A DNA stretch of 64,000 nt, from the NCBI GenBank assembly GCA_003104935.1, contig PQAE01000002.1, forward strand, positions 67,527 through 131,526, written 5' to 3'. This document shows positions 2,507 to 12,009 of the stretch, piece by piece. This DNA is from Parcubacteria group bacterium (lineage in GTDB: Bacteria; Patescibacteriota; Patescibacteriia; UBA1558; GWA2-36-10). The notes below the pieces were generated by a model. The model did no database searches. It saw only the letters and a program-made list of their open reading frames with translations, and was not told the origin of the DNA. How positions within the stretch are numbered: the first letter of the stretch is position 1; each line of letters begins with the position of its first letter. The position numbers and the translations under genes are program-made.

Positions 2507-3499
2507 TTAGGTGTTATTAAATTCGCCGGCAATATTTTGTTTCATTACTTTTTCAAAAGCCGGCAATTTCTTACGATTAGCCACGGCCCAGAGAGTCTTG
2601 GCTACGGCCGTTTCCCAGGTGCAATCCGCCAGGCAGACCAGAGAACCGCTACCAACACTTAACTCGCGGTGATACAAAATTACTGATCGGCCGCTTTTTT
2701 CCAAAAGCAACTGTTTTTCTTTTTCCAATTGGTAATTGCCGGCCAACTTAACTATAATAGCTTCATATTTTAATAAATCATTTTTGTCCAGATTCCAGTC
2801 CACACCGCGGACATCCTGAAGTGTTAATATTTTGGCCGAAATTTTATCATAGATATTTTCTCTGGGCTTAGACGTCTGCAAACCGGATTTGATACTAATG
2901 CCAAAATCTACTCGACCCCAATAATTATTATCCTGGCTGACAAACATATTGGCCCGGTCATTGCTATTTGCTGGGATCGCCTTAACCGCCGGAATAAGTC
3001 GCGTGCCAAACATAATAGCCGGTCCGGGCAAAGTTTGACTGGCCACCTGAATGGCGTTGATCAGATTGGACTTCAGGCCGGAGCCACTGTGCTTGTCACG
3101 CAATTCCTTGATTAGGGCCTTTTTCTGATTATAGTCCGTGCCGCTGATGCTGGCGCCGGTTAAAATAATAGTTTTAGAAAAATTTTGCAGTAAAAAACCA
3201 AGTATTGCTCCTGTTTGCGCCAATTGCTCTACCGGAGCTACTATGACAAAACCATCAGCCTGGCCAGCTTTAACCTTGATAATCCTAGCCATGTTTTCCC
3301 AATGGCTAAACTGCAATACATCATCCTCTCCGGCTAACAATACTGTTTCCATATCAGCCAAAATATTTAGCTCCGGCATTTGGGCTAGCCATAAAGCAAT
3401 ATCTTCTTTTTTTTGTACGGAATAAAAATGCCCTTGTTTGTCTATCAAAACAGTGCCACCGGCTAAAAGTAGATATATTTTTTTGTTATTTTTAGGCAT
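2507..3499 (-). CDS. L-asparaginase/GatD-fold protein with degenerate catalytic motifs
   Basis: 330 aa, collinear with the type I asparaginase architecture (LAGGTV..., GFVIVAPV...ILTGAS...NLINAIQVAS). The TGGT Thr nucleophile is replaced by AGGT and the HGTDT box by APVEQ. Confidence 0.5.
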   Translation of the reverse strand: MPKNNKKIYLLLAGGTVLIDKQGHFYSVQKKEDIALWLAQMPELNILADMETVLLAGEDDVLQFSHWENMARIIKVKAGQADGFVIVAPVEQLAQTGAILGFLLQNFSKTIILTGASISGTDYNQKKALIKELRDKHSGSGLKSNLINAIQVASQTLPGPAIMFGTRLIPAVKAIPANSNDRANMFVSQDNNYWGRVDFGISIKSGLQTSKPRENIYDKISAKILTLQDVRGVDWNLDKNDLLKYEAIIVKLAGNYQLEKEKQLLLEKSGRSVILYHRELSVGSGSLVCLADCTWETAVAKTLWAVANRKKLPAFEKVMKQNIAGEFNNT

Positions 3500-4184
3500 T
3501 GGTTTTTTCTTTGGGAGAGAAGATGAAATAAAATACTACAAAATTTATCAGTAAGGTAGATAATGGCCCTAAATGAGTATATCTCACATCATATGCATAA
3601 ACCAATAAAAGATTAGCGTAAGAGCTGACTAAAGCTCCGATTATAACTGCCGCTAATATAAATTTTAATTGTGACTTGTAAATTCCATCAGTAGTTCTAT
3701 ATTTTTTGACTAATAAAACAATGGACATGAACACTAAGATAAGAAAATTAAGGGTAAATAAAGTATAAGAATACCACTCAAAAGAGGCAATTACATGATC
3801 TGGCGCTATCTCAATATTAGGGACAGAAAACTGATAAAAAAACAAATAAAATACTATTGTCCATAAAACAGAGCTCGCTAAAAATATTTTTGTTCTCTTT
3901 GAAATATCAAAGGATTTATATGGAAAATTTAAAATAAACATGTACAAACAAACAATTATCAACAGCCCTGTTGGGCAACTAAGGGCTTCGGAAAACCTAA
4001 TCAGTTCATAACTAACTCCTAGGTTCGGAATAATCAACACACAGGTCCATAAAAAAGTAAAAAAAGCAACCAAGCTAAAATACAAATTTATCTTACTATT
4101 CTTTACTCCGCGGGACAAAATTATCAAACACATTAGTAAATTTACTGCCGCCGCGATTAAAAGCCAAATGTTTTGCGTATTCAT
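3492..4184 (-). CDS. stand-alone multi-pass membrane protein, histidine-kinase N-terminal 7TM-like (paralog B)
   Basis: 230 aa with 6-7 predicted TM helices. The N-terminus MNTQNIWLLIAAAVNLLM...SRGV.NSKINLYFSL..F.FLW matches the HisKA_7TM-type sensor pattern and the protein is a paralog of 4188..4859. Confidence 0.5.
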   Translation of the reverse strand: MNTQNIWLLIAAAVNLLMCLIILSRGVKNSKINLYFSLVAFFTFLWTCVLIIPNLGVSYELIRFSEALSCPTGLLIIVCLYMFILNFPYKSFDISKRTKIFLASSVLWTIVFYLFFYQFSVPNIEIAPDHVIASFEWYSYTLFTLNFLILVFMSIVLLVKKYRTTDGIYKSQLKFILAAVIIGALVSSYANLLLVYAYDVRYTHLGPLSTLLINFVVFYFIFSPKEKTNA

Positions 4185-4187
4185 ACT

Positions 4188-4859
4188 TTATTCTTTAAAA
4201 AAAGCAAGGCGAAACACCATAAAATTCATAAATAATGTAAATATAGGTCCAAAACCGACTAATTTAAAGTTAGCAAAATAACAAAGAAATAAATCGAAAT
4301 ATATGCCAAAGACTAACCCTATAGATATGGTTACTAACAGCAGCAAAATTTGTTTTTTTAAAATTCCATCTGCCTGCCGAAATTTCACCAGAAAATTTTT
4401 AATGGCTAATATGACGATTGAAATAAAAACAAATGAATATAAAATGTACAGATCTTTCCTAATAAATAAAGTGTATTCCGTTTTTAATAGATCTTTCTCT
4501 GATCCAGTAATATACATATTTCCAAAAATAAAAAAAACAAACATCAGGAGCAGTAGAACGAATAATTTATTAACAAATTTGTTTTGGACAATTTTATAAG
4601 GATAATGTACGGAAAATAAATATAAACTCATAGCAATGGCTAAAGCCGATATATATGCGGCCTGGGCATTAAAAAACCAAAACGCACTGTCTGATGTTCT
4701 GGCGTAAAATAAATTCATGCACCATAGAAAATCAAAAAACGTCAGTAAACTAAAATACAAATTTATCTTATTATTTATGACGCCGCGCGATAGCACCAAC
4801 ACACTCATAAATAAGTTGATGCTGGCCGCTATCAAAAGAATTATATTTTGGGTATTCAT
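4188..4859 (-). CDS. stand-alone multi-pass membrane protein, histidine-kinase N-terminal 7TM-like (paralog A)
   Basis: 223 aa. Shares the MNTQNIxLLIAAxxNLxM...SRGVxNxKINLYFSL N-terminus with the downstream paralog. A 4-bp intergenic gap suggests one operon. Confidence 0.5.
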   Translation of the reverse strand: MNTQNIILLIAASINLFMSVLVLSRGVINNKINLYFSLLTFFDFLWCMNLFYARTSDSAFWFFNAQAAYISALAIAMSLYLFSVHYPYKIVQNKFVNKLFVLLLLMFVFFIFGNMYITGSEKDLLKTEYTLFIRKDLYILYSFVFISIVILAIKNFLVKFRQADGILKKQILLLLVTISIGLVFGIYFDLFLCYFANFKLVGFGPIFTLFMNFMVFRLAFFKE

Positions 4860-4885
4860 AGCCGTCTTTTTTTATTAGCCGTCTA
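4859..4885 (-). promoter_or_regulatory. direct repeat of AGACGGCTA (18-bp period) in the leader, abutting the start codon of the 7TM gene
   Basis: Read on the minus strand, TAGTTATTATAGACGGCTAATAAAAAAAGACGGCTATG. A TTGACA-16-TATAGT promoter lies just upstream, on the minus strand. The same GACGGCT pair occurs in both Rhs toxin leaders. Confidence 0.3.
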
Positions 4886-5045
4886 TAATAACTATACTAT
4901 GAAAACCGGCTTTGTCAACCCCGTTAGACGCCACATAGGCTAGGGAGATGCTATGATACTTGTTCAATGCGTAAGCCATGTATAATAAAAAAACTGCTGT
5001 GATATGGAACAGCGTGTCGAGTCAATAAGTTGATAAAAGTAACAG

Positions 5046-5369
5046 CTAGCCTCCGATAAAAAAAATTTTATCTCTGTCTTCAGGATGAATAACATAACTT
5101 AATAAATCATGCCTCATCGCTCCAGTCTTTTTAAAGTTTAGTTTAGCTTCACGTAAAGTCATATGATTAGGGCCATCTAAATATTCACTATTGTCAATAT
5201 CCAAGTCATTAGCAAACTCATCTTCCCAAAAACAAACTGGACACACTAAATTTTCACCCCTACTTTCCAATGTAATGTAACCGCAGCAAGGGCATGGCTC
5301 TGTAGGATCATAATAATCAACGGATTTCTTTGAACGATACTTAAGTAATAATTCTTTGTCTTTTATCAC
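5046..5369 (-). CDS. CPCC-family cysteine-rich small protein
   Basis: 107 aa with CPCCGY...CPVCFWEDE, the signature of the CPCC cysteine-rich domain family. Confidence 0.6.
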   Translation of the reverse strand: MIKDKELLLKYRSKKSVDYYDPTEPCPCCGYITLESRGENLVCPVCFWEDEFANDLDIDNSEYLDGPNHMTLREAKLNFKKTGAMRHDLLSYVIHPEDRDKIFFIGG

Positions 5370-5385
5370 ACAATCCGATTAAATT

Positions 5386-5616
5386 TTAGTGATCAAATCC
5401 GGATAATTCAATATGTACTAATTTACCGCCTTCAGAAAAGGATAAAATTATGTCAGCCCCCAAGGAATCTAAATATTGGCACCCTTCGTCAGATAATGAA
5501 ACCGTTTTTTTTACTTTATTTTCTGAAAGCGGTATCGCAGTTAAACCGTCTTCATAATCATAGGTCACGTTGATTTTTTTTCTCTCATATATTTCATTAT
5601 TAATTACTCCGGCCAC
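5386..5616 (-). CDS. DUF2283-like small protein
   Basis: 76 aa. The pattern INVTYDYEDGLTAI...ADIILSFSEGGKLVHIELSG resembles DUF2283 (YDxExDxLYI ... IVGIEIL). It overlaps the upstream gene by 13 bp. Confidence 0.45.
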   Translation of the reverse strand: MAGVINNEIYERKKINVTYDYEDGLTAIPLSENKVKKTVSLSDEGCQYLDSLGADIILSFSEGGKLVHIELSGFDH

Positions 5617-5933
5617 CCAGTAATAAATTTTTTTAACTTATCGCGTAGTGCATTTACATCGTCCTTGGTAATATCGTCATAAAGAGCAACAAAGTCCCCG
5701 TTATCATAATATAGCATGTCCAAGGAATTTATTATTATTGACAAATCTTCAAATTTTAAAACATAATCCATTTTCTGCAATCTTTCATTAACCCTCTTGT
5801 ACACTTCACGATCAAATAAAAATTTCACTTTCTTTAATATATATGGATATCCCCACGAATCAATTAAGCTCTTGCCTATAATATATTTTTCCTGTTTACT
5901 TAAAATTAAAAAATGTTGTATTTGCTCTGTCAT
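5604..5933 (-). CDS. hypothetical protein, candidate cognate immunity protein for the upstream Rhs-CT toxin
   Basis: 109 aa with no recognisable motif. It lies immediately downstream (10 bp) of the Rhs toxin on the same strand. Confidence 0.4.
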   Translation of the reverse strand: MTEQIQHFLILSKQEKYIIGKSLIDSWGYPYILKKVKFLFDREVYKRVNERLQKMDYVLKFEDLSIIINSLDMLYYDNGDFVALYDDITKDDVNALRDKLKKFITGWPE

Positions 5934-5943
5934 TTTATAGTTA

Positions 5944-7098
5944 TTATTTTTTAAAAAAATCCCCTAATATATTTTCTTTGACGTATTTATATGCCTTATC
6001 TGGTTGGAATACTGTAGGTTGTTTTGGATTGTCAATAAATAGAATATTATCTTTAATGTTATAAAAATATTTTTTAACTCCCTTAATAGTTGCCTTGATA
6101 TCAAAATTCTTGAATGTATCCTTGGTTATATCTGTCACCTCTTCGATTGTCTTTCCTTTAAAATGACCCTGCTCTAATGCGTGCCTCGCCGCTGAAATGA
6201 ATGTTTTGTCTGCTGTTTCTAAACTTTTCCCAATAACTTTCTCCTCTCCACCCACACTAGTATCAAGAGTCGTTAACAACAAGGAAAATAATCTTGTGTT
6301 TGTCTTTTGTTCAGGGTCATAAAGATTGGCCACGTTATCAACAAAATCACCCAAGCTATTTGTAACAAACCCTGAAGCTTTACTGACGGTGCCACCCTGA
6401 TTACAAGTATAATTAGCCGCATTATGTAGGAATGAAGAAATATCTCTCTGACCACTAGCCATATCTACACCAAACTGACCATAAAATTTTCCATCAGGAT
6501 CCGTATATTTTACCGGATTATCCCCAGCATAACTATAACTATTCAGGTTTTGTGGATTAGCCAGTTGTTCTTGGACACTTCTACCATAGGCCTTGGTAAA
6601 ATCCTGGTCATCATTAAGTATAAAAAGTGCCGGATCTATAGAATAAAATCTCCCTGTAGTATTATCTAAATACCTGGCTCCATAGTATTGTAGATTGTTT
6701 TCTTTATCTAATTCTTTACCGGTAAACTTCTTGGTATTATCAATAGTGGAGTTAAGAGTCTTGGCTTGACCATAGGGGTCATAATCATTGGTTTCAAGTA
6801 TATTTCCTTGACTGTCGGTAATAATGGTGGGAGAACCGAGGTGATCGTTTATGTCATACTGTGTGCTAGTATTACTGACTGTGGATATCTTTTGATCACC
6901 AATATAGATATTGACCTTAAAATTACCGTCTTTATCTATTTCAAAGTACTTATCAATATATTTAGTCTGATCGGTAGTGACATTTTCATAGTGACCAGAC
7001 TCGGTCGCAAAGATTGGTTGTACAAATAAAAAAAATAACAGGAATAATACTATTATAGCAAAAATCCTGTTGTTTGTGACTTTTCTTCTGCCAGTCAT
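5944..7098 (-). CDS. secreted short Rhs-core polymorphic toxin (signal peptide, Rhs repeat-associated core, variable C-terminal toxin domain)
   Basis: 384 aa with an N-terminal hydrophobic signal/TM segment. DINDHLGSP...YDPYGQ...FTGKELDKENNLQYYGARYLDNTTGRFYSIDP...NLNSYSYAGDNPVKYTDPDG is the Rhs/YD core with the terminal DPxG site. About 185 aa of unassigned C-terminal domain follow it. Confidence 0.7.
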   Translation of the reverse strand: MTGRRKVTNNRIFAIIVLFLLFFLFVQPIFATESGHYENVTTDQTKYIDKYFEIDKDGNFKVNIYIGDQKISTVSNTSTQYDINDHLGSPTIITDSQGNILETNDYDPYGQAKTLNSTIDNTKKFTGKELDKENNLQYYGARYLDNTTGRFYSIDPALFILNDDQDFTKAYGRSVQEQLANPQNLNSYSYAGDNPVKYTDPDGKFYGQFGVDMASGQRDISSFLHNAANYTCNQGGTVSKASGFVTNSLGDFVDNVANLYDPEQKTNTRLFSLLLTTLDTSVGGEEKVIGKSLETADKTFISAARHALEQGHFKGKTIEEVTDITKDTFKNFDIKATIKGVKKYFYNIKDNILFIDNPKQPTVFQPDKAYKYVKENILGDFFKK

Positions 7099-7112
7099 AC
7101 GCTATATATTAA

Positions 7113-7143
7113 AGCCGTCGCTTAATTAATAGCCGTCTAATAT
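7113..7143 (-). promoter_or_regulatory. GACGGCT direct-repeat pair in the Rhs toxin leader
   Basis: Read on the minus strand, TTAGACGGCTATTAATTAAGCGACGGCTTTAATATATAGCGTATG. An identical copy lies at 828-853 upstream of the other Rhs paralog. Confidence 0.3.
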
Positions 7144-7240
7144 TTATAGCTTTAATGTAATCCTCTAGATAAAATTTGTCAAGAAAAAATGCCCCTTCAA
7201 CAAGGCCACTTTTGGGTCAACCCTAGTCGCTAAAATGAAA

Positions 7241-7272: not shown

Positions 7273-7370
7273 TGGAGCCGGTGAGAGGACTTGAACCTCC
7301 AACATATGGTTTAAAACGAAACCAGGGCTTCGTCATCCACCACTGCTCTACCAATTGAGCTACACCGGCC
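7273..7370 (-). tRNA. tRNA-like gene with a ~21-nt insertion in the anticodon loop; anticodon unassigned (possible intron-containing tRNA or pseudogene)
   Basis: Read on the minus strand, G+GCCGGTG TA GCTC-AATTGGTA-GAGC A GTGGT[28 nt]ACCAT ATGTT GGAGG-TTCAAGT-CCTCT CACCGGC T CCA. The acceptor, D and T arms are canonical and CCA is encoded. The anticodon stem GTGGT/ACCAT encloses 28 nt instead of 7. Confidence 0.55.
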
Positions 7371-7493
7371 AGTCTTAGGTATATGTACTCACAGTTGGAT
7401 ATATTAGCAGAAAAGGATTTATTGTCAAGAAAACAAAAATACCCCTAGGCCAAGCACTGTGGTTTTTAGAAAACTTTTTTATAGAAATTAAAA

Positions 7494-8876
7494 CTATAAC
7501 TTTACCTGCACCGCATTTTGTCCCAGCTCGGTATCGCGGATTTCCACTCCCAACTCCGATAATTTATCCCGCAACTTATCGGATTGGGTCCAGTCTTTGG
7601 CTTGCCGGACTAATTTTCTTTGCTCTAATAATTCTTGAGCTCCGGGTGGTAGATTTAAGGCCCGCTCCCTGAGCTCCTTTAAGCCGAGACCTAAGACTTC
7701 ATCCATTTTTAACACCGCACATAATTTGGCATGCGTAGGATTTTCCGATTCAATGGTTTGTTGTAGTACTGCCAGTCCCTTAGCACTATTGATATCGTCA
7801 GCCATCTGCAGATAAAAATCCGCCTCTAGGTCCGGACAGCCCAAAGCCGGCTTATCAAAAAATGCAATTTCTTTTATTATATTGACCAATCCTCTTTGTG
7901 CGGCCTCCAAAGATTCCCAGGTAAAGTTTAAAGTCTTGCGATAATGATTTTGCAATACTAATAATCGGAAAGCCGCCGGTGAAAATCCTTTAGCTTTGAT
8001 ATCTTGTAATGTGATGCCGGTGCCGAGTGACTTTGACATCTTGCCACTGTCAACACGCATAAAGGCATTGTGTAGCCAGTAATTGGCTTGTCGCTTGCCG
8101 GTCACGGCTTGGGACTGGGCCATCTCATTAGGGTGGTGCACGGTCAGGTGGTCTAAGCCGCCGGTATGGATATCAAAAGTATCGCCGAGCGTCATCCGGC
8201 TCATCACCGAGCACTCCAGGTGCCAGCCCGGAAAGCCCTTGCCCCAGGGCGATTCCCACTCCATATCCCTTTTTTCATCCGCCGGAGAAAACTTCCACAC
8301 GGCAAAATCGCTGGGATGTTTTTTGTCCGGATTGACGTCCACCCGACTGCCAGCGCGCTGATCTACGTTTTTCAGATTGCCCAGCTGGCCGTAATTTTTT
8401 GCTTTGGAGGTATCAAAATACATGCCATCGGAAATCCGGTACAAATATCCCTTCTTATCCAAAACCTGGGCAAACTCAATCTGTTCTCTGATCGTATCGG
8501 TAGCGCGCAGATACTTAATCGACGGCAAAATATTTAGCTCATTCATGTTTTCAAAAAATACTGCACTGTATTTTTTGGCCAGATCCCAGGCTGATTCACC
8601 GGTTTTTTGGCTCGCCTTGACCAGTTTGTCCTGGCCGGCATCGGCATCCGAGGTCAGATGCCCCACATCCGTGATATTCATGACATGTTCCACCTGATAC
8701 TTTTGGGAAAGCAGATAACGCTTGAGTACATCCCAAATGATATAGGGCAACATATTCCCTAAGTGGGGATTATCATAGACCGTGGGACCACAGCTATAAA
8801 TACCGACCTTATCTTTAGAAATAGGCTTAAACTCCTCTTTTTTACGAGTCAGGCTGTTATACAAAAGTATGGTCAT
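7494..8876 (-). CDS. cysS: cysteinyl-tRNA synthetase
   Basis: 460 aa with the class I HLGN (HIGH-type) and KMSKS motifs and a CysRS-like overall sequence. Confidence 0.9.
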   Translation of the reverse strand: MTILLYNSLTRKKEEFKPISKDKVGIYSCGPTVYDNPHLGNMLPYIIWDVLKRYLLSQKYQVEHVMNITDVGHLTSDADAGQDKLVKASQKTGESAWDLAKKYSAVFFENMNELNILPSIKYLRATDTIREQIEFAQVLDKKGYLYRISDGMYFDTSKAKNYGQLGNLKNVDQRAGSRVDVNPDKKHPSDFAVWKFSPADEKRDMEWESPWGKGFPGWHLECSVMSRMTLGDTFDIHTGGLDHLTVHHPNEMAQSQAVTGKRQANYWLHNAFMRVDSGKMSKSLGTGITLQDIKAKGFSPAAFRLLVLQNHYRKTLNFTWESLEAAQRGLVNIIKEIAFFDKPALGCPDLEADFYLQMADDINSAKGLAVLQQTIESENPTHAKLCAVLKMDEVLGLGLKELRERALNLPPGAQELLEQRKLVRQAKDWTQSDKLRDKLSELGVEIRDTELGQNAVQVKL

Positions 8877-8969: not shown

Positions 8970-10892
8970 TTAGTCGACCTGATTATCGCCGCCACTCGGA
9001 GTGCTGGTAGCATTGCCACTCACGATGATTGATTGATAGGCCCAATTATTATCTTCGTTGCTTTCCGCTAATTCATTGGCATTGTCAATCTTAATAGATA
9101 AATTCTTAGTGCCGGCAGTGGGCCAATATCCCATAAAAGAAATCTCAAAGGTCTGGCCAGGTAATAACGGACTGCCAGTAGTAATCGTAGGCAAAGATAA
9201 ATTGGTCTGTACAAAATCCCCAAAACCACGGTAATAATTTAGAATTCCCTTGGTATCCGACAAGACGGAATCCCCGCTATTTTTCCCTATAAATCTGACG
9301 ACTGTATTTGCCGTCGTGGTCGCCTGGGGTTGAGCAGGCTCACTGGACAGAGACAGGGCGCTGATATCAATATTATGAGTCGTGGGGCCTAAAACTAGGA
9401 TATCCATACTCATTTCGTTATTTTTTTCGTCCAATTCATCAATAAGACTACCCGGATCGGCCTGAATCGTAATTTTCTTCATTCCACCATTGCCAGTAAA
9501 CGATCCTTTTGCCCGAAAAATCACTGACTCATTCTGGTATAAGGGTCGAGTTTCCGATATTAGGCGGTCAGGAATAAAGTCTGTTTGCCAGACAAATCCG
9601 CTGGGTGTCGCGCTAGATTCTTTGAGAACTGGGCTCGCTTTCAGTGCTTTGCCTAAATTTTTTACGGTCGCGACGATGGTGATGGTGTCGCCGACACTAA
9701 CAGTTTTCGGGGGTAAAAGATATAAATTGTTAATAGTCAAATCCTCCTTAGTCGGTCCAGAACTATTTTTGTCACAGGTTAGGATGCGGTGTGTGTGGTC
9801 GTCAAATAAGGCCCAGACGCGACGAGTGGGGTTATTCCAATCGACATCATCCACGCCCGGTGTAAACCACGGCGACCAATGTCCAGCAAACCACTGAATT
9901 TGGTACTTTTGGATATCGCTATGTTGAGTCATGTCTAATCCTATATCAGTCCAGTGGGTAGTGCGGAAGGGTCCGCGAGTAACTTCTGTCGGATTTTCGC
10001 ACGGCAGTATTTGTGGCGGTTGTGGACCGATCGGAGTGCTGACCGAACACGCTCCCTGCTTATCGCCATGCGCTAGATGAGCCGCTAAAGCTCGGCTTGA
10101 GATCTCAATAGTGTGTTCAGACTCATTACTGGTTTGGGGCTTATGACACACCAGTACTTTCTGATTATCATTTACCGGATCAAACTGCGAAATATGTTTT
10201 TCTTCAATTTCCAAGTCATCCCCAGACTTATAAATAACCGGTATCTTTGACATCTGGACGACGATCTTTTTCTCCAGACCATTGATGCCATAGGCGCTCA
10301 CGTCCACTTTTCTTTTTTGCTGATTATCAATTAGATAGAAATTGCCGCTCTGCCCTTCTTCCACTAGAGTGCCGTCGGGCAATTTATCGCTACTGATGTT
10401 TTGGCCCCGAATATTATAGGCGCTGGCAAAAATACCCGGATCAATATCATCCACTTGCTTTGCCCAATCTTTACCAAAAAGCTCCGCCGCCGTAGTTTCA
10501 TCAGGAATATAAAATAATTCTCCGTCCTTTCCTACGGCATAGACTTTGGCGGTGTTTTGATTGGTTATTAACCTGGCCCCCGGTTGAAAAGTAACTGCCC
10601 CGCCCACGGGAATTTTATCAATTTCAGCTAAAGAGACTTCTTTAACCTGACTAAAATTATTGTACCAGGTGTTATAGGTTTTTTGGTCGGGAAAGACATA
10701 TTTTTTGCCGTCCGGCCCGACCTCATAAACCGGTGCTCCTTTAATCCCCTTGACTTTGAGCAAAGCGCCGTCTTCCACAACGGCGTTAGAGTTATTAACA
10801 GCCTGTGATCTGGCTGTAGTCATAAATATTCCCGCTACTGCCAAAAATACGGCCAAACCTCCAAATTTTAGTAAGTTTTTTGTTCTGAACAT
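8970..10892 (-). CDS. large secreted protein with C-terminal CARDB-like domains
   Basis: 640 aa with an N-terminal signal peptide. The C-terminal segments VSVGDTITIVATVKNLGKA and ...NANELAESNEDNNWAY match the CARDB pattern. Confidence 0.55.
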   Translation of the reverse strand: MFRTKNLLKFGGLAVFLAVAGIFMTTARSQAVNNSNAVVEDGALLKVKGIKGAPVYEVGPDGKKYVFPDQKTYNTWYNNFSQVKEVSLAEIDKIPVGGAVTFQPGARLITNQNTAKVYAVGKDGELFYIPDETTAAELFGKDWAKQVDDIDPGIFASAYNIRGQNISSDKLPDGTLVEEGQSGNFYLIDNQQKRKVDVSAYGINGLEKKIVVQMSKIPVIYKSGDDLEIEEKHISQFDPVNDNQKVLVCHKPQTSNESEHTIEISSRALAAHLAHGDKQGACSVSTPIGPQPPQILPCENPTEVTRGPFRTTHWTDIGLDMTQHSDIQKYQIQWFAGHWSPWFTPGVDDVDWNNPTRRVWALFDDHTHRILTCDKNSSGPTKEDLTINNLYLLPPKTVSVGDTITIVATVKNLGKALKASPVLKESSATPSGFVWQTDFIPDRLISETRPLYQNESVIFRAKGSFTGNGGMKKITIQADPGSLIDELDEKNNEMSMDILVLGPTTHNIDISALSLSSEPAQPQATTTANTVVRFIGKNSGDSVLSDTKGILNYYRGFGDFVQTNLSLPTITTGSPLLPGQTFEISFMGYWPTAGTKNLSIKIDNANELAESNEDNNWAYQSIIVSGNATSTPSGGDNQVD

Positions 10893-11004
10893 ATCAATTT
10901 GTTAATTAATAATTATATAAAAATCACAATATTAATATTTGCCATATTCGCGACAGTAGTTTCTTGAATTATTAATCATAGTGGAGACTTTTTGCTCTTG
11001 ATAT

Positions 11005-12009
11005 TTAATCAAATTCTCTGATCATTTCCACTAGCCGATTGGCATAGCCCCATTCATTGTCATACCAGGCAATGATCTTGACCAGATTGCCGCCGACTAC
11101 ATTGGTCAGACTTAAATCAACTATCGATGACCGCGCATCACCGATAAAATCCGAGGAAACGACCGCATCATTAGTCACACCCAAAATGCCTTTCATCGCC
11201 TGGGAATTACTGGCACTTATTAAGGCATTATTCACTTGCCGGACGGTTACTTTTTTCTTTAGTAAAAAAGTAAAATCAGCCAGGGAAACCACGGCCGTCG
11301 GCACGCGAAGCGATAGGCCGTCAAACAACCCCTGCAGTTCCGGAATCACCGCGCCCAGAGCAGACGCCGCGCCCGTGGTCGTAGGCACTATATTTTGGGC
11401 GGCACTGCGTCCGCGGCGGGCGTCTTTGTGCGGCGCATCGACCAGACGTTGATCGGCGGTATAGCTATGGATGGTGGTCATCATGGCCTTGTCCACGCCA
11501 AATTTATCTACCATTACTTTGGCTACCGGCGCAATACAGTTGGTTGTGCAGGAAGCATTGGAAATTACTTTGTCATTTTTTAGTTTTCTTTCGTTGACAC
11601 CCAGGAGGTAAGTAGCAATATCGCCGCCCTTGACCGGAGCGGATACAATCACGTGTTTAGCGCCGGCCTTAATATGCGCAGCGGCTTTATTGTCTTTGAC
11701 AAAGAGGCCGGTACACTCCAACACTACATCTATCCGCATCTTTTTCCAGGGTAATTTCAAGGGATCAGGCACGGCGGTCACGGCATATTTACGACCACTC
11801 ACCACGATGTTTGACCCGGCACTGCCGACTTTCTTATCATAGCGGCCATAGACCGTGTCATATTTCAATAAATAAGCCAGATTTTCCGCCGGGGCCAGAT
11901 CATTGATGGCCACTACCTGATAACGGGCCGGAGACTCCAGCATTATTTTAAAAGCCGACCGCCCGATACGACCAAAACCGTTGATAGCTACTCTCGTTTT
12001 TTTTGCCAT
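11005..12009 (-). CDS. gap: glyceraldehyde-3-phosphate dehydrogenase
   Basis: 334 aa with the INGFGRIGR NAD-binding motif and the SCTTNCIAP active-site Cys motif. Confidence 0.9.
   Translation of the reverse strand: MAKKTRVAINGFGRIGRSAFKIMLESPARYQVVAINDLAPAENLAYLLKYDTVYGRYDKKVGSAGSNIVVSGRKYAVTAVPDPLKLPWKKMRIDVVLECTGLFVKDNKAAAHIKAGAKHVIVSAPVKGGDIATYLLGVNERKLKNDKVISNASCTTNCIAPVAKVMVDKFGVDKAMMTTIHSYTADQRLVDAPHKDARRGRSAAQNIVPTTTGAASALGAVIPELQGLFDGLSLRVPTAVVSLADFTFLLKKKVTVRQVNNALISASNSQAMKGILGVTNDAVVSSDFIGDARSSIVDLSLTNVVGGNLVKIIAWYDNEWGYANRLVEMIREFD

Follow-up and report, generated by a model that had tools for sequence, protein, structure and literature searches.

A probable small Rhs-type toxin operon with one cognate and two putative orphan immunity genes in a Parcubacteria-group bacterium

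The locus described here lies in a 64,000-nt stretch of DNA (contig PQAE01000002.1, positions 67,527 to 131,526, hereafter the window) from a Parcubacteria-group metagenome-assembled genome (MAG). Four genes are read from its minus strand in the order mini-Rhs, ORF1, ORF2 and ORF3 (ORF, open reading frame; the NCBI tag of ORF1 is C3F02_00495). Together they probably form a small Rhs-type polymorphic toxin operon, in which ORF1 is the cognate immunity gene of the mini-Rhs toxin domain (CT-A) and ORF2 and ORF3 are orphan immunity genes. In a first-pass annotation, made from the DNA letters only, the three small genes had been taken as one candidate immunity or accessory cassette of the upstream toxin. 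The toxin/immunity context was upheld; the service of one toxin by all three genes was not, since in other loci ORF2 homologs accompany CT-D and ORF3 homologs CT-B, two unrelated Rhs C-terminal domains that the window lacks. Loci or contigs (L-numbers) and protein homologs or clusters (P-numbers) are cited by their labels in this survey.

The three short same-strand ORFs annotated at 5046-5933, with their 10-bp and overlapping junctions, were confirmed in coordinates and arrangement. The stop of mini-Rhs (5944) and the start of ORF1 (5933) are separated by a 10-bp gap, ORF1 and ORF2 overlap by 13 bp, and a 16-bp gap separates ORF2 from ORF3. Since each of the three ORFs has conserved protein homologs elsewhere, they are genes and not chance reading frames. 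Profile searches returned the same families as had been assigned in the first-pass annotation: none for ORF1, DUF2283 for ORF2 (marginally) and CPCC for ORF3. The features are as follows (position 1 is the first letter of the window).

5944..7098, minus strand: mini-Rhs toxin gene, 384 aa, with the RHS repeat-associated core TIGR03696
5604..5933, minus strand: ORF1, 109 aa, ATG start, likely the cognate immunity protein of CT-A
5386..5616, minus strand: ORF2, 76 aa from GTG 5616 or 60 aa from GTG 5568, DUF2283-like
5046..5369, minus strand: ORF3, 107 aa, GTG start, CPCC zinc-ribbon protein
5625..5641, minus strand: recombination crossover, about 17 nt of microhomology (ATAAGTTAAAAAAATTT) at which local alignments start or stop

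The mini-Rhs protein begins with a signal or transmembrane segment and would presumably be exported through Sec. Its Rhs core was matched by TIGR03696 over residues 106-203 (E=3e-17, 62.9 bits against a cutoff of 32.5) and ends in DPDGKF (...NPVKYTDPDGKF). Ahead of the core lie the last Rhs repeats, for which only weak RHS_repeat and RHS matches were obtained; with only 384 aa, the protein is too short for a full-length Rhs/YD-repeat shell. The core is followed by a 180-aa C-terminal region without a family match. An orphan module on L101, which bears a different toxin domain, shares 40% identity with residues 171-290, and the variable domain CT-A was therefore placed at about residues 291-384 (about 94 aa), behind a pre-toxin linker of about 90 aa (about residues 204-290). 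CT-A gave no Pfam match even at E<=10 and no match to PDB profiles, and a word-indexed search of 5.8 billion proteins with CT-A alone returned no match; its relatives were found only on contig L002. An assignment to the DUF4258/BECR RNases, suggested by the motif AARHALEQGHF, was rejected: it was borne out neither by Pfam nor by the PDB profiles, and the hhalign probability was 2.9% against CT-D and 0.4% against a DUF4258-like C-terminal domain. The single-sequence AlphaFold2 (AF2) model of the mini-Rhs C-terminal region was unusable (predicted local distance difference test score, pLDDT, of 38).

Homologs of ORF1 formed a single cluster (P0002, 66% identity) in a search of 5.8 billion proteins. 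On L002, P0002 follows a gene fragment whose product clearly resembles the end of the window toxin, with a 10-bp gap as in the window. A second CT-A module on the same contig (588-1267) consists of the end of an Rhs core and a CT-A homolog; it is a frameshifted orphan, split into ORFs of 108 and 130 aa, and is followed by a 98-aa ORF1-like protein (25% identity, with the GYPY and ALxDD motifs in common). CT-A and an ORF1-like gene were found paired three times (once in the window and twice on L002), the junction being a 10-bp gap or a 4-bp overlap. Because its only homologs lie directly behind CT-A homologs, ORF1 is likely the cognate immunity gene of CT-A, in agreement with the role first assigned to the gene that follows the toxin. 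L002 carries neither a DUF2283 nor a CPCC gene, and the next gene there encodes an HTH_3-Fic protein. In this survey, CT-A and ORF1 were found only on uncultured metagenome contigs (the window, L002 and near-identical contigs).

The ORF1/ORF2 overlap is a recombination joint, at which a CT-D toxin gene was deleted and its immunity gene kept, because L002-like DNA switches to L096-like DNA at 5641-5625. In DNA alignments, positions 5714..5625 of the window match the ORF1 homolog on L002, and this match ends at ...AAAAATTT. From 5641 on, the window matches L096 through the CT-D toxin tail, the stop codon, the intergenic region and the ORF2 homolog; over the tail and the intergenic stretch 47 of 56 positions are identical. 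The final six codons of ORF1 (ITGWPE, then the stop codon; about 5624-5604) derive from the 3' terminus of another toxin gene, which has been deleted. Before their stop codons, ORF1 ends in ...KLKKFITGWPE and the L096 toxin in ...KFKKFITGWPK, and P0002 ends in ...KFHKDHKVD (KLEKFHKDHKVD). Between ORF2 and ORF3, the intergenic sequence (5370-5386, minus strand; AAATTTAATCGGAT) resembles the last CT-B codons (AAA TTT AAT CAA AT.., L014 790-825), and may be a second deletion scar with a possible 14-nt trace of CT-B upstream of ORF3.

ORF2 passed the threshold of PF10049 (DUF2283) marginally (E=5.7e-5, 23.6 bits against a cutoff of 23), and its homologs scored 25.3 and 32.0 bits. The subfamily is rare: an exhaustive HMMER search of 1.8 billion representatives yielded eight small homolog clusters, and a metagenome scan with a four-sequence ORF2 alignment yielded seven loci. 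On L096, L097, L098 and L099 the ORF2 homolog lies 15-30 bp behind a CT-D domain linked to an Rhs core (L100 gave match statistics equal to those of L099, and the arrangement was read in L099). On L101 it lies behind a shortened CT-D remnant, and on L095, where it is an orphan, another toxin/immunity pair precedes it. In all, ORF2 homologs (43-66% identity) were found 15-30 bp behind CT-D or its remnant at five independent loci. CT-D has the conserved end ...GRESFRYxGxxAVLNFNxxxExITGWxK and, except for the six-codon tail, is absent from the window. Since its homologs elsewhere directly follow CT-D, of which the window keeps only the tail, ORF2 is a putative orphan that would confer immunity to this Rhs toxin domain. 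CT-D, like CT-A, is carried on Rhs proteins or Rhs-core fragments. The CT-D/DUF2283 pairs were found only on unclassified, uncultured metagenome contigs, and a search for ORF2-like genes on plasmids returned no match. On L101, a chimeric ORF (7488-7988) consisting of a duplicated fragment of the big Rhs protein and the last ~35 aa of CT-D precedes the DUF2283 gene.

The ATG conserved among the homologs of ORF2 has lost its frame in the window through a 1-nt deletion in an A-run, so that the 76-aa length depends on the upstream GTG (5616). A start at GTG 5568 (60 aa) is equally plausible; ORF2 then reads MTYDYEDG..., like natural homologs that start MTIDHENG. An AF2 model built on a nine-sequence alignment (pLDDT 83.5) showed a small beta-rich fold, confident from about residue 10 and with residues 1-8 disordered, for which no fold match was found in the PDB. 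The partnership with DUF4258-type toxins that had been proposed for the ORF2 family was not confirmed. As a candidate DUF4258 domain (PF14076/Ntox49), CT-D reached only E=0.11 in one of five members, with no match in the others, and hhalign against a bona fide DUF4258-like C-terminal domain gave a probability of 18%. Profile searches of the window found no DUF4258 match, and on L099 the gene next to a DUF4258-like domain encodes a 115-aa protein that is not DUF2283. ORF2 and its kin are like the putative DUF4258-DUF2283 pairing in that a small toxin domain is directly followed by the gene of a small, separate protein, but their partner CT-D is fused to an Rhs core and has no significant DUF4258 match.

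ORF3 was matched by PF14206 (Cys_rich_CPCC) with E=1.5e-22 (79.6 bits against a cutoff of 24.5). Residues C26, C28, C29, C43 and C46 are invariant in 38 homologs, and all CPCC invariant residues are retained. Its closest relatives, P0004, P0005 and P0006 (75, 68 and 67% identity), are encoded 4-7 bp after Rhs-core proteins bearing CT-B, a domain with the motifs ...DHFKRHG...YSKQAKxF...LVKW...IKTYF...; the three CT-B/CPCC pairs are diverged, and each has a gap of 4-7 bp. CT-B was found in L006-L014 and L102-L105, and a tblastn search of the window returned no remnant of it. As its closest relatives follow CT-B, which the window lacks, ORF3 is a putative orphan CPCC immunity gene of the kind of CdiI (PDB 8EY4, chain I). 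On L014 a CdiI_3 immunity gene follows the CPCC gene, and on L106 the CPCC gene lies within an array behind a deaminase-like C-terminal domain.

The CPCC profile and ORF3 alone both matched 8EY4 chain I and 8EY3 ('Cys_rich_CPCC domain-containing protein'); with phmmer, ORF3 residues 23-87 matched 8EY4 chain I at E=9.7e-10. Chain A of 8EY4 ('PT-VENN domain-containing protein') is the C-terminal domain of E. coli CdiA. On plasmid pO113 a CdiA ORF of >2,309 aa ends 139 residues past its VENN motif, and the CPCC gene starts right at that stop codon. A toxin/immunity role, presented as new for CPCC in the first-pass annotation, is thus already on record: the CdiA-CT/CPCC complex in 8EY4 establishes CPCC structurally as a toxin-binding immunity protein. 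In the literature collection that was searched, no paper describing the 8EY3/8EY4 structure was found (the only one to cite 8EY4 did so in passing), and none that treats CPCC or DUF2283 proteins as immunity factors. ORF3 is a homolog of chain I in which the CPCC...CxxCxWED cysteines are conserved. It differs in length (107 aa against about 62 aa, with N- and C-terminal extensions) and in that its partner toxin is missing from the window; delivery in the E. coli system is by contact-dependent inhibition (CDI) through two-partner-secreted CdiA, and the carrier here is mini-Rhs.

In the favoured model, the secreted mini-Rhs would carry the CT-A domain of about 94 aa, which is predicted to be toxic, and ORF1 would presumably bind CT-A and protect the producer. 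ORF2 and ORF3 would have been left over, or kept by selection, from two other toxin/immunity modules (CT-D and CT-B), the toxin parts of which would have been deleted by recombination while the immunity genes were retained. Both orphans would then guard the cell when neighbouring cells deliver toxins of the CT-D and CT-B types. The model supposes that CT-A, CT-B and CT-D are all toxic and that each immunity protein binds its own toxin.

The tight same-strand packing of the genes (gaps of 10 and 16 bp and an overlap of 13 bp), and the promoter-like and terminator-like sites that enclose all four of them, would fit a single immunity or accessory cassette in which all three small genes serve the upstream toxin, either as a multi-subunit immunity complex or as an immunity protein with chaperones. 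Such a cassette is highly improbable. The other CT-A loci, all on L002, have ORF1-like genes without a DUF2283 or CPCC gene, the homologs of ORF2 and ORF3 each stand behind a different toxin domain, and the ORF1/ORF2 overlap is itself a recombination scar. It is also improbable that the position beside Rhs is incidental, ORF3 being a generic zinc-ribbon protein with a housekeeping or regulatory function and ORF2 a DUF2283 regulator or antitoxin (FseA/QseM or type II). An incidental position would agree with the unrelated neighbours found at the majority of 77 reference-genome CPCC loci, and on integrative conjugative elements DUF2283 domains have been reported to act as activators of transcription (PMC4755241). 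ORF2 and its relatives resemble the regulators FseA/QseM (ICEMlSym R7A) in passing the PF10049 threshold (23.6-32 bits), but the kin of ORF2 were found in no DNA-binding or regulator context. Moreover, the nearest relatives of ORF2 and ORF3 consistently occupy the place of the immunity gene after an Rhs C-terminal domain, and a CPCC protein has been crystallised in complex with a CDI toxin. More weight is due to the proposal, unlikely as it is, that ORF2, and perhaps ORF3 too, is a relic in decay that has ceased to be expressed or to function, so that the locus would comprise one working toxin/immunity pair and debris. It is favoured by the frameshifted ATG of ORF2 and by the GTG starts of ORF2 and ORF3, the homologs of which use ATG. 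Against it, the frames of ORF2 and ORF3 are intact over the whole conserved domain, the start at GTG 5568 gives ORF2 an N-terminus like that of its natural homologs, the ORF2 model is confident from about residue 10, and none of the CPCC invariant residues has been lost from ORF3.

Several observations weigh against one cognate and two orphan immunity genes. Only two contigs carry the CT-A/ORF1 pairing. The toxicity of CT-A, CT-B and CT-D is read from their position after the Rhs core, because they lack a significant family assignment. CT-B may be distantly related to chain A of 8EY4: hhalign aligned the CT-B profile with it over 70 columns including the HxxKHG motif (probability 78.5%, E=1.7e-5), and hmmsearch against the PDB gave no match. 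The case for this homology is moderate and not decisive. On L101, a divergent CT-D variant (10180-10905, tail ITAIRTTSK) is followed by an unrelated 102-aa gene, which is not DUF2283 (the two together occupy 10180-11217). ORF2, with the frame of its conserved ATG lost, may not be expressed. Finally, a sample of 77 CPCC loci was drawn from GTDB species representatives, and most had unrelated neighbours (MetH, IDH, RelA/SpoT, tRNA synthetases, beta-lactamases); an Rhs or PT-HINT toxin lay directly upstream in only about 4-6 of the 77. A strict Rhs-core regular expression matched at 2 of the 77 loci. When Pfam was run on the immediate neighbours, PT-HINT or Rhs was found in about four, with single matches to Imm32, DUF1963, YoeB, VapB and Fic. 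The loci with an Rhs or PT-HINT toxin directly upstream of the CPCC gene were L053, L061 and L091, and on L088 an Rhs gene was nearby. Since most CPCC loci show no toxin, membership in PF14206 does not by itself imply immunity, and the immunity role proposed for ORF3 is therefore founded on the subfamily to which it belongs and on 8EY4 as a precedent. The neighbourhood comparison suggested in the first-pass annotation came out in two ways: the nearest homologs of ORF2 and ORF3 recur behind Rhs C-terminal domains, and most CPCC loci are without a toxin.

Further forms of the CPCC family were seen in the same material. Many CPCC proteins are about 183 aa long and begin with a conserved domain of about 105 aa that bears no family name (LLDWWSIDxxDPxYxxLP). 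Proteins of this form were seen in L053, L061, L091, L036, L052, L088 and P0018-P0122; in three genomes they stand behind giant Rhs or PT-HINT proteins, each time after a gap of 16 bp. In a Polyangiaceae MAG (L064, 4990-6237), an Rhs-core fragment continues in frame, without a stop, for about 165 aa into a two-domain CPCC protein, an apparent fusion of a toxin remnant and an immunity gene. Two tandem CPCC paralogs, each with an extra N-terminal CxxC domain, were found in a Sericytochromatia MAG (L081, 5054-6234), with no toxin nearby.

The four-gene unit is flanked by two sites recognised by sequence consensus.

7154..7182, minus strand: promoter-like site upstream of mini-Rhs, consensus match only
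4996..5013, minus strand: terminator-like hairpin and T-run, 33 nt past the ORF3 stop, consensus match only

The hairpin is likely the end of the four-gene unit; promoter-like sites in the region were no more numerous than in shuffled sequence. The cassette has a GC content of 33.5% against 43.9% for the window, and belongs to a low-GC island (about 3492-7200, 32% against 44% for the window) with a tRNA gene at its edge. This tRNA gene (7273-7369, minus strand, 97 nt; Rfam tRNA, 54.9 bits) lies directly upstream of the cassette. It was reported by ARAGORN as 'tRNA-???', is unusually long and may carry an intron or a long variable arm. Low-GC DNA at 3492-4184 and 4188-4859 (minus strand) encodes two membrane proteins of 230 and 223 aa, which are tandem paralogs. 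Although they lack a kinase domain, both resemble the N-terminal seven-transmembrane part of histidine kinases (HisKA_7TM, E=2.9e-6 and 1e-4); a promoter-like site of their own lies at 4918-4891. An imperfect 26-nt direct repeat (4854-4879 and 7125-7150, 20/26 identical, core ATAGCCGTCT) flanks the four-gene cassette and could be an insertion mark or a chance match.

Rhs and other polymorphic toxin loci with arrays of orphan C-terminal-domain/immunity modules have been described for Enterobacteria and in comparative genomics. The locus in the window resembles them in having an Rhs core with a DPxG boundary, then a variable C-terminal domain and, directly downstream, the cognate immunity gene. 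Further likenesses are the immunity genes without toxins, the recombination scar at a module boundary and the location in a low-GC island beside a tRNA gene. It differs in its host, a Parcubacteria bacterium of the candidate phyla radiation (CPR), in the small size of its Rhs protein (384 aa, with a Sec-type signal peptide), in the almost complete loss of the toxin parts of the orphans, and in that the CT-A and CT-D toxin domains and ORF1 belong to no named family. It is a typical polymorphic toxin locus, and the known framework of polymorphic toxin systems is unchanged by it. It is conceivable, at slightly less than an even chance, that DUF2283-fold proteins are an unrecognised immunity family for a novel CT-D and that CT-A and ORF1 are an entirely new toxin/immunity pair.

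Comparison of gene neighbourhoods separates the cognate immunity gene from the orphans and corrects the plausible reading of three genes for one toxin. A subfamily of DUF2283 would gain a testable function, immunity to a specific Rhs toxin domain, and the CPCC/CdiI type of immunity would be extended from the CDI systems of E. coli to Rhs loci of candidate-phyla bacteria. The six-codon toxin tail is a clean molecular record of the deletion of a toxin module with its immunity gene kept. The carrier of CT-A, a Sec-exported mini-Rhs too small for an Rhs cage, would, if the reading is true, imply a delivery route unlike that of classical Rhs effectors. The locus also hints that ultra-small CPR bacteria may join in toxin-mediated competition and stockpile protection against the toxins of their neighbours.

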